From Actinomycetes bacterium (GTDB lineage: Bacteria; Actinomycetota; Thermoleophilia; BMS3ABIN01): DNA of 64,000 nt. Each line of letters begins with the position of its first letter. Within the stretch, counting starts at the first letter, position 1. Below the pieces are notes generated by a model. The model was not told where the DNA came from and did no database searches. It worked only from the letters and a program-made list of their open reading frames with translations. This document shows, piece by piece, positions 23,326-24,639 of the stretch. The stretch spans positions 14,804-78,803 of the forward strand of contig JAJYIM010000002.1 of the NCBI GenBank assembly GCA_021790115.1. Reading direction: 5' to 3'. Both the position numbers and the translations under genes were made by a program.

Positions 23326-24639
23326 CTACCCCAGTGCCTGCCCGGTTTGAAAATCTGCCAATATCTGGGAAAAGCGGCCGGCAGCAAGCACGTTCTCAAT
23401 CCGCGTCAAGCGGTTGTATTTGGAGACCCTTTCGGAGCGAGCCGGAGCCCCGGTCTTGATCTGGCCGGCGTTGGCGCCAACGGCCAGGTCGGCTATGAAA
23501 GTATCCTCGGTCTCGCCGGAGCGGTGGGAGACAACCGTCCTGTAGCCGTAGTCCCGGGCAATCTGGATCGTCTCCAGCGTCCCCGAGACGGTCCCGATCT
23601 GGTTGGGCTTGATCAGGATGGCATTAGCGATGCCGCGCTCTACGCCCCGCCGGAAAATTTCGGTGTTGGTGACAAAGATATCGTCGCCGACCAGCTGGAT
23701 TTTGCCGCCAAGCCTCTCGGTCATGAGCTTCCATCCGCGCCAGTCTCCTTCAGCCAAACCATCCTCGATGGAAATAATCGGATATAGATCAACCAGATAT
23801 TCGTAATAATCGATCATCTCGCTGCCGGTCTTTTCCTCACCGTCAAAAAGGTACATGTCGTCTTGATAAAATTCACTTGCTGCGGGATCAAGAGCAATGG
23901 CGACATCATGGCCTATTTCATAACCAGCTGCGCCAATTGCGTCAACGATGATCTTGATGGCCTCCTCGCTGTTTGACAAACGCGGGGCGAAGCCGCCTTC
24001 GTCGCCCACTGAAATTATCTGCCCCGTTTTCTTCAGGATCAGCTTCAGATTCTGGTAGACTTCCGAGCAGAATCTGACAGCCTCGGCCATGGCCCGGGCG
24101 CCGATAGGAACAATCAGGAATTCCTGCAGCGATATGCCGCTATCAGCATGGACGCCGCCATTCAGGACGTTCATCATGGGAACCGGCATGCATGTGGCTT
24201 GTGAGCCGCCCAAGTGGTGAAAAAGCGGCACCCCGGATTCTTTGGCAGCCGCCCTTGCAGCCGCCATTGAAATAGCAAGAATCGCATTTGCCCCCAGGTG
24301 GCTTTTATCCTCCGTTTCATCAAGTGAAATCAGGACGCGGTCTATTTCCAGCTGGTTAAAAACGTCTCTGCCAGCAGGTTAGGCTTGATGACTTTCTCGA
24401 TGTTCTCAACGGCCTTTTTAACCCCTTTGCCGCCAAACCTCTCATTGTCACCGTCTCTAAGCTCAAGCGCTTCCCGCGTTCCGGTTGAGGCTCCGGACGG
24501 AACCATGGCCCCCCGAAATTCCAGAGTCAAGAATTATCTCTGCGGCAACGGTCGGGTTACCCCTTGGATCCAGGATTTCCATTGCTTTAATATCTGAAAT
24601 TTGGTATCTTGCCGTTTCAACTCCTTGTTTGGTTTGCAT
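23326..24639 (-). pseudogene. eno: Enolase (phosphopyruvate hydratase), reading frame broken by two compensating frameshifts
   Basis: The C-terminal 313 aa (23326-24267) and a 62-aa middle piece (24342-24530, [22 protein letters not shown]) are both canonical enolase. The N-terminus (MQTKQG...ISDIKAMEILDPRGNPTV) is in a third frame. Shift 1 is at a C6 run (24510-24515). Shift 2 is at CTGCTGGCAGAG (about 24370), consistent with loss of one CTGG unit. Confidence 0.75.

Follow-up and report, generated by a model that had tools for sequence, protein, structure and literature searches.

A three-frame enolase gene is most likely a recently inactivated pseudogene in a locally decaying gene block of an uncultivated Actinomycetota-like bacterium

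Small indels in bacterial pseudogenes are typically deletions. In the decaying genes of Mycobacterium leprae and Salmonella Typhi, pseudogenes arise by small frameshifting deletions and by loss of upstream DNA; multiple independent lesions accumulate, small indels are deletions and start codons are lost; adjacent genes decay together, the open reading frame (ORF) stays recognizable, and relatives keep intact orthologues. A protein may also be encoded in more than one frame where a run permits tRNA re-pairing, as in programmed +1 frameshifting (prfB type) or -1 frameshifting (dnaX or IS type), and in the phase-variable loci of Neisseria and Campylobacter a coding poly-G/C tract sets the frame. 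Canonical enolase (phosphopyruvate hydratase; TIGR01060; PDB 4mks, 4a3r and 1e9i) is normally indispensable, which counts against reading the eno gene described below as a pseudogene.

Here we describe an eno locus on the minus strand of a 64,000-nucleotide stretch of DNA (the window; all positions below refer to it unless another contig is named). The locus shares the listed features of decay with the M. leprae and Salmonella Typhi pseudogenes. Unlike those, it concerns a core glycolytic/gluconeogenic enzyme in an apparently free-living, uncultivated Actinomycetota-like organism; and there is no sign here of decay throughout the genome on the scale seen in M. leprae, everything else in the 64 kb being intact except for one gene that carries an in-frame TAG. 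With the prfB, dnaX and IS types it has in common a protein in more than one frame and a run that would permit tRNA re-pairing, but its shift is not conserved, its +1 site has no in-frame stop or hungry codon, and there is neither a slippery heptamer nor a stimulatory structure. A coding G6 tract that sets the frame recalls the Neisseria and Campylobacter loci; the tract is short, however, the product is a housekeeping enzyme, and because a second, non-repeat frameshift and other lesions are present, no single slippage event can switch eno back on.

Three-frame translation of the minus strand from 24639 to 23326 gave a canonical enolase whose reading passes from frame 0 to frame 2 and back to frame 0. 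An earlier note on this DNA had proposed three different frames, with those of the N- and C-terminal parts coinciding; both points were borne out, the first also by the way in which the pieces tile TIGR01060, an NCBIfam equivalog model, at positions 1-30 (E 1e-5), 30-77 (E 2e-18) and 113-412 (E 1e-133). With the two shifts mended, the product would have 437 aa and covers model positions 1-412 of 425 with 617 bits against a cut-off of 300, a score that holds for the repaired conceptual sequence only. Since the three frames tile the model, the repaired product is a clear TIGR01060 equivalog. Its alignment with solved enolases covers the full length, and comparison with 11 homologues and PDB 4mks showed that the catalytic and metal motifs are all kept (SGASTG, QEF, GDEGG, ALDPAASE, SIEDG, VGDD, KPNQIG, SHRSGETED and QIKTG). 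The enolase identity of the three-frame locus is real and far beyond chance. Unlike canonical enolase genes, the window locus has no continuous frame, begins with ACG and carries S25P, G108E and E353G at near-invariant positions.

The misframed stretch (24509-24373) comprises 137 nt or about 46 codons, fewer than the roughly 58 first estimated, and frame 0 meets 7 stops across it. With three frames, these 7 stops and an ACG start, eno has no single uninterrupted ORF with a start codon. A frame-0 read-through product, that is, a 'compensated' frameshift protein, was considered as a candidate and ruled out by the 7 stops. The features of the locus are collected in Table 1.

Table 1. Coordinates of the eno locus and the neighbouring MFS remnant in the window
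Feature	Position	Strand	Basis or remark
eno pseudogene, whole extent	23326..24639	-	Upstream in-frame ATG (24639) to TAG stop (23326); three-frame translation
Enolase piece 1, frame 0	24510..24615	-	Residues up to ...DSGISG; TIGR01060 positions 1-30
Enolase piece 2, frame 2	24373..24509	-	...KPNLL; 137 nt, ~46 codons; TIGR01060 positions 30-77
Enolase piece 3, frame 0	23326..24372	-	GRDVFNQ... to stop; includes 313-aa ORF 23326-24267; TIGR01060 positions 113-412
Shine-Dalgarno AAGGAG of eno	24621..24626	-	Aligns with GGAG(G) before the start codon in L003, L005, L006 and L088
Lost start codon ACG	24613..24615	-	ATG in 4/4 relatives (L003, L005, L006 and L088)
G6 run (C6 on plus strand), first frameshift	24509..24514	-	2-nt deletion inside a conserved Lys/Arg codon
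Second frameshift, 1-nt deletion CT^GGC (24373/24372 boundary)	24372..24374	-	Relatives TTGCTCGGC or CTAATCGGC
MFS transporter pseudogene	24661..25481	-	Two ORFs, 89 and 197 aa, 3'-truncated; Pfam MFS_1
Junction of ~1.05-kb deletion (between 24668 and 24667), then premature MFS stop	24661..24668	-	Alignment with L088
MFS 1-nt deletion, ACCGCC^GTTTTGG (25290/25289 boundary)	25289..25290	-	Relatives GCCGGTTTT; L088 and L094 both GG (three-way alignment)

The lesions were defined by nucleotide alignment with the intact eno genes of four related contigs, L003, L005, L006 and L088. At the first shift, the window reads TCGGGGGGCC, L088 reads TCGGGGAGGGCC and L005 reads TCGGGGAAGGCC. The change is from TCGGGG[AG]GGCC (TCG GGG AGG GCC in L088, TCG GGG AAG GCC in L005) to the window sequence, and all 11 aligned homologues show one residue more than the window at this site (SG[K/R/L/I]AM). 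Because the window is one residue short of every relative here, the lesion is best read as a 2-nt deletion and not as one extra base in the run, as had been suggested (the homopolymer also lies one position lower than the 24510-24515 given at the time). Two nucleotides of a codon present in all relatives are gone; the G6 run is thus a deletion scar, not a miscounted homopolymer. The first lesion would nevertheless amount to the shortening of a G8 run to G6 were the lost codon GGG (Gly) in the immediate ancestor.

At the second shift, residue counts on both flanks equal those in every aligned relative, and the lesion is a 1-nt deletion. The loss of a CTGG unit, which had been invoked for this site, would add a residue seen in no aligned relative. 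The combination of +1 at the C6 run with loss of a CTGG unit was rejected as a whole, since it predicts residue counts of -1 at the first site and +1 at the second against all relatives. The total of -3 nt given earlier was right; its composition relative to the relatives is -2 and -1. Neither frameshift is present in any of the four intact syntenic orthologues. The upstream in-frame ATG at 24639 is also found in L088 but is not accompanied by a Shine-Dalgarno sequence.

Next to eno, an MFS transporter gene is split and truncated, as had been noticed. It does not lie about 150 bp downstream, however; it is upstream of eno in the direction of transcription, and 21 nt separate the end of its remnant from the ATG at 24639. 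The remnant shows 87% nucleotide identity to an intact 405-aa gene (P0123) of L088. Compared to that contig, a stretch of ~1,048 nt (L088 positions 1149-2196) has no counterpart in the window; it holds the last 124 MFS codons, a spacer and a small DUF8147 gene, and the deletion ends ~25 nt before the ATG at 24639 and ~40 nt before the Shine-Dalgarno sequence of eno. The MFS gene of L006 had been considered as the orthologue of the broken gene and was rejected for want of any similarity; a cluster look-up identified P0123 as the true orthologue.

At the site of the 1-nt deletion in MFS, the sister lineage L094 (92.6% nucleotide identity to the window) is intact. This 611-bp contig (ENA ERZ27237159 k141_675403) aligns to 25050-25641 of the window, and its MFS gene has its own 2-nt (GC) insertion slightly further on, giving a premature stop. 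If this insertion is real, MFS is decaying independently in sister lineages, a point of little weight because the contig is short, ~20 nt at its end are unaligned and that end looks chimeric, so that the contig may be partly artefactual. L094 also shares with the window a stretch of ~122 nt (25498-25619), between an antiporter-like gene and the MFS start, that is missing in L088.

Two further observations concern the composition and contents of this region. A 77-aa ORF at 22254-22487 (minus strand) matches, at 74.5% nucleotide identity, the DUF8147 gene found between MFS and eno in L088; one copy resembling DUF8147 thus persists downstream of the metallophosphoesterase gene, and the copy upstream of eno is deleted. 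In the 14-42 kb for which GC content was profiled, 24000-24999 is the lowest-GC kilobase (0.511 vs ~0.57-0.62 for most others); both the 5' portion of eno and the junction of the large deletion fall in it.

Altogether, the lesions number five and belong to four kinds, all inside 1.9 kb: an ATG-to-ACG substitution, one deletion of 2 nt, two of 1 nt each and one of ~1.05 kb. All five are absent from the intact syntenic orthologues, and the small indels in eno and MFS are without exception deletions (2 nt, 1 nt and 1 nt).

The closest intact enolase homologues are 72-80% identical and come from metagenome-assembled genomes labelled Thermoleophilia, Actinobacteria or Candidatus Aquicultor. Intact orthologues placed in the same gene neighbourhood, those of L003, L005, L006 and L088, show 77-83% amino acid identity to the repaired enolase. 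The nearest is L088 (83% amino acid and 81% nucleotide identity), a Logan contig with an antiporter subunit, MFS, DUF8147 and an intact enolase that was reached via a cluster look-up of the broken MFS fragment. The neighbourhood common to the relatives consists of a dynamin-like GTPase, a variable insert, eno, a metallophosphoesterase, MFS, DUF6504, GalT, aldolase II, an AIRS-domain gene and a GAF/PAS kinase. Given this conserved neighbourhood, the window eno is the syntenic enolase of the lineage and not obviously an exotic extra copy.

In the window, a six-gene cluster (25633-33311, minus strand) resembling complex I or a group-4 [NiFe]-hydrogenase is placed between the dynamin-like GTPase and the broken MFS gene, where L003 and L005 have a Na+/H+ exchanger. 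Its members are NuoH-like, NuoK-like, antiporter-like (492 aa), fused 30kDa/49kDa (525 aa), NuoB-like with an Fe-S domain, and antiporter-like (717 aa). L088 and L091 have the antiporter-like neighbour in common with the window. GC3 of the six genes is 0.62-0.66, below that of most other window genes (0.70-0.85).

Amino acid changes were polarised with three outgroups, which assigned 23 to the window branch and 24 to the L088 branch. The ratios of nonsynonymous to synonymous changes were 23/31 and 24/57, respectively (Fisher p = 0.14). Neither the relative-rate test nor the nonsynonymous/synonymous comparison with L088 showed a significant acceleration of amino acid change on the window branch, so any relaxation of selection must be recent. 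Three window-branch changes, S25P, G108E and E353G, fall in columns at least 97% conserved among 120 enolases; the mean number of substitutions at such sites in the other sequences is 0.49, and 4 of 121 sequences reach 3. The excess of conserved-site substitutions in the window enolase is mild. The other parts of the frame (313 codons open), the catalytic motifs and the substitution rate are still like those of a functional gene, which points to a recent inactivation after a long functional history.

Compared with the intact orthologues in the corresponding genomic position, eno has a broken frame, and the gene carries multiple independent lesions beside a decaying neighbour, both of which are marks of a pseudogene. 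We conclude that the locus is most likely a true enolase pseudogene of recent origin, in a gene block that is decaying locally, and the syntenic orthologue of the relatives' intact eno. Of the readings that the earlier note had left side by side (pseudogene, which it tied to a second eno copy, consensus error or recoding), the first gains support from the five independent lesions in 1.9 kb absent from intact syntenic orthologues, and the eno lesion is most likely that of an ordinary recent pseudogene, not a sequencing error or a recoding signal.

The comparison with relatives suggests the following course, in an order of events that we infer. The MFS-(DUF8147)-eno block would no longer be maintained in the window lineage. 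A ~1.05-kb deletion would have taken the 3' third of MFS along with the small DUF8147 gene and the sequence preceding eno, and the MFS remnant would have lost one more base. The start codon of eno would have mutated from ATG to ACG, and a 2-nt and then a 1-nt deletion, 137 nt apart, would have put about 46 codons out of frame with stops among them. As far as can be judged from the sequence, full-length enolase would not be producible by normal translation. The organism may have another enolase elsewhere, or the population may tolerate the loss.

It is conceivable but unlikely that the lesions are real and polymorphic, so that the consensus represents a dominant broken allele beside a minority intact eno allele, or that the broken lineage is a transient dead end. 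The organism is known from one sample set only, the inactivation is recent, and the sister lineage L094 differs in the MFS lesion that it carries, all of which would fit such a situation. However, the 3.6-kb Logan contig is unbroken and 100% identical to the window through all lesion sites, which suggests that there is no abundant alternative allele.

That the gene is intact in the organism and that the indels stem from read errors or from the assembler appears very improbable to us. The window sequence was compared with other assemblies. The 313-aa C-terminal enolase ORF is on record in four contigs. A 62.6-kb ENA MEGAHIT contig showed 1 mismatch to the window in 20.9 kb, at 15021 and far from eno, and the Logan contig covers 22902-26488, spanning all five lesion sites. 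The window, ENA MEGAHIT and Logan assemblies thus agree base for base at every lesion. They are distinct assemblies, since the window runs on across the point, at ~48.8 kb, where the ENA assembly is broken, but they probably share one read set, because ERZ27233565 and SRR13170411 always appear together; their agreement excludes assembler artefacts but not a systematic read-level error. Such an error would be in keeping with the location of two small indels out of three at G/C runs (G6 at 24509-24514; GG vs GGG at 24371-2). In addition, all assemblies with the sequence seem to stem from one sample set, and an exact-pattern scan of JGI metagenome contigs that accepted either the deleted or the intact allele gave 0 hits, adding no other sample.

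Against a read-level error, the k=141 MEGAHIT contig implies short reads, which rarely yield consensus indels; the first lesion is a loss of 2 nt inside a codon relative to the relatives, not a simple homopolymer miscount; and a substituted start codon and a 1.05-kb deletion are impossible as homopolymer errors. No other frameshifts were found in the remaining ~60 kb of the window. The other ~60 genes, with one exception, have full-length Pfam matches or lengths equal to those of relatives, among them the fab and acc genes, PFOR, the dcw cluster through ftsZ and the six-gene complex-I/hydrogenase-like cluster. As the remaining genes of the 64 kb are intact, indels are not a general property of the assembly. 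A lesion cluster confined to two adjacent genes and reproduced in three assemblies is not what sequencing error looks like.

The exception is a gene for a spermidine-synthase-like membrane protein (35408-36892, minus strand, ~495 codons) with an in-frame TAG at 36290-36292, where relatives have Gly. Its product shows 68% identity over 506 aa to the 507-aa L003 orthologue, and the gene may be a second, unrelated pseudogene or a split gene; a look-up of its 258-aa ORF in other assemblies found nothing on record. A GAF/PAS/HAMP histidine kinase (14084-17467, plus strand) has 1103 aa as called, compared to 1271-1273 aa in L003 and L005; a different number of domains or a truncation may account for this.

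Programmed recoding, with a +1 shift on the G run (GGG-G) and a -1 shift further on, before the frame-2 stop (e.g. at G-UUU-UUA), yielding a functional enolase, has next to no likelihood. Formally, tRNA-Gly could re-pair from one GGG to the GGG that overlaps it, and the interval in which -1 could restore the frame includes a U5 run, GUUUUUA, with 6/7 bases of U UUU UUA. But neither shift occurs in any orthologue, all relatives having one continuous frame; the +1 site has an ordinary GGC in the A site, neither a stop nor a rare codon; no heptamer of the X XXY YYZ type exists, G UUU UUA being the nearest; shuffled controls fold as well as the RNA downstream of either site (z = +0.60 and +1.79); the start codon and the upstream region are damaged and the neighbouring gene is decaying; and two inefficient shifts in series would give a negligible yield.

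If eno is a recently inactivated pseudogene, as we favour, the question of another enolase arises. A scan of genome contigs with the repaired enolase gave, among the matches listed, only enolases of 55-60% identity, with the universal motif GETEDTFI saturating the search, and a collection of 15 billion proteins contained no enolase at least 90% identical. In the literature, we found no paper citing the run and assembly accessions, and searches with the lineage names brought up nothing on enolase. A second enolase copy or a minority intact allele is what one would conservatively expect. Conserved synteny across the lineage fits the window eno as the housekeeping copy. That it was the sole enolase of the genome, recently lost by a free-living, hydrogenase- and PFOR-bearing actinobacterium-like organism, is a possibility to which we give little credence; in that case, the 2-phosphoglycerate/PEP step would have to be bypassed (for example, by way of C3 phosphoglycerates from serine or glycerate), or the organism would depend on partners.

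For annotation, the locus is to be recorded as an eno pseudogene and not as the 313-aa 'enolase' that protein collections now have, and its tacit correction as a homopolymer error should be avoided; as this case shows, setting a gene against its orthologues makes it possible to tell a real deletion from a miscounted homopolymer. The locus would be of biological interest only if a complete genome were to contain no second enolase. The organism would in that case offer a rare view of a free-living bacterium shortly after the loss of a central glycolytic/gluconeogenic enzyme.
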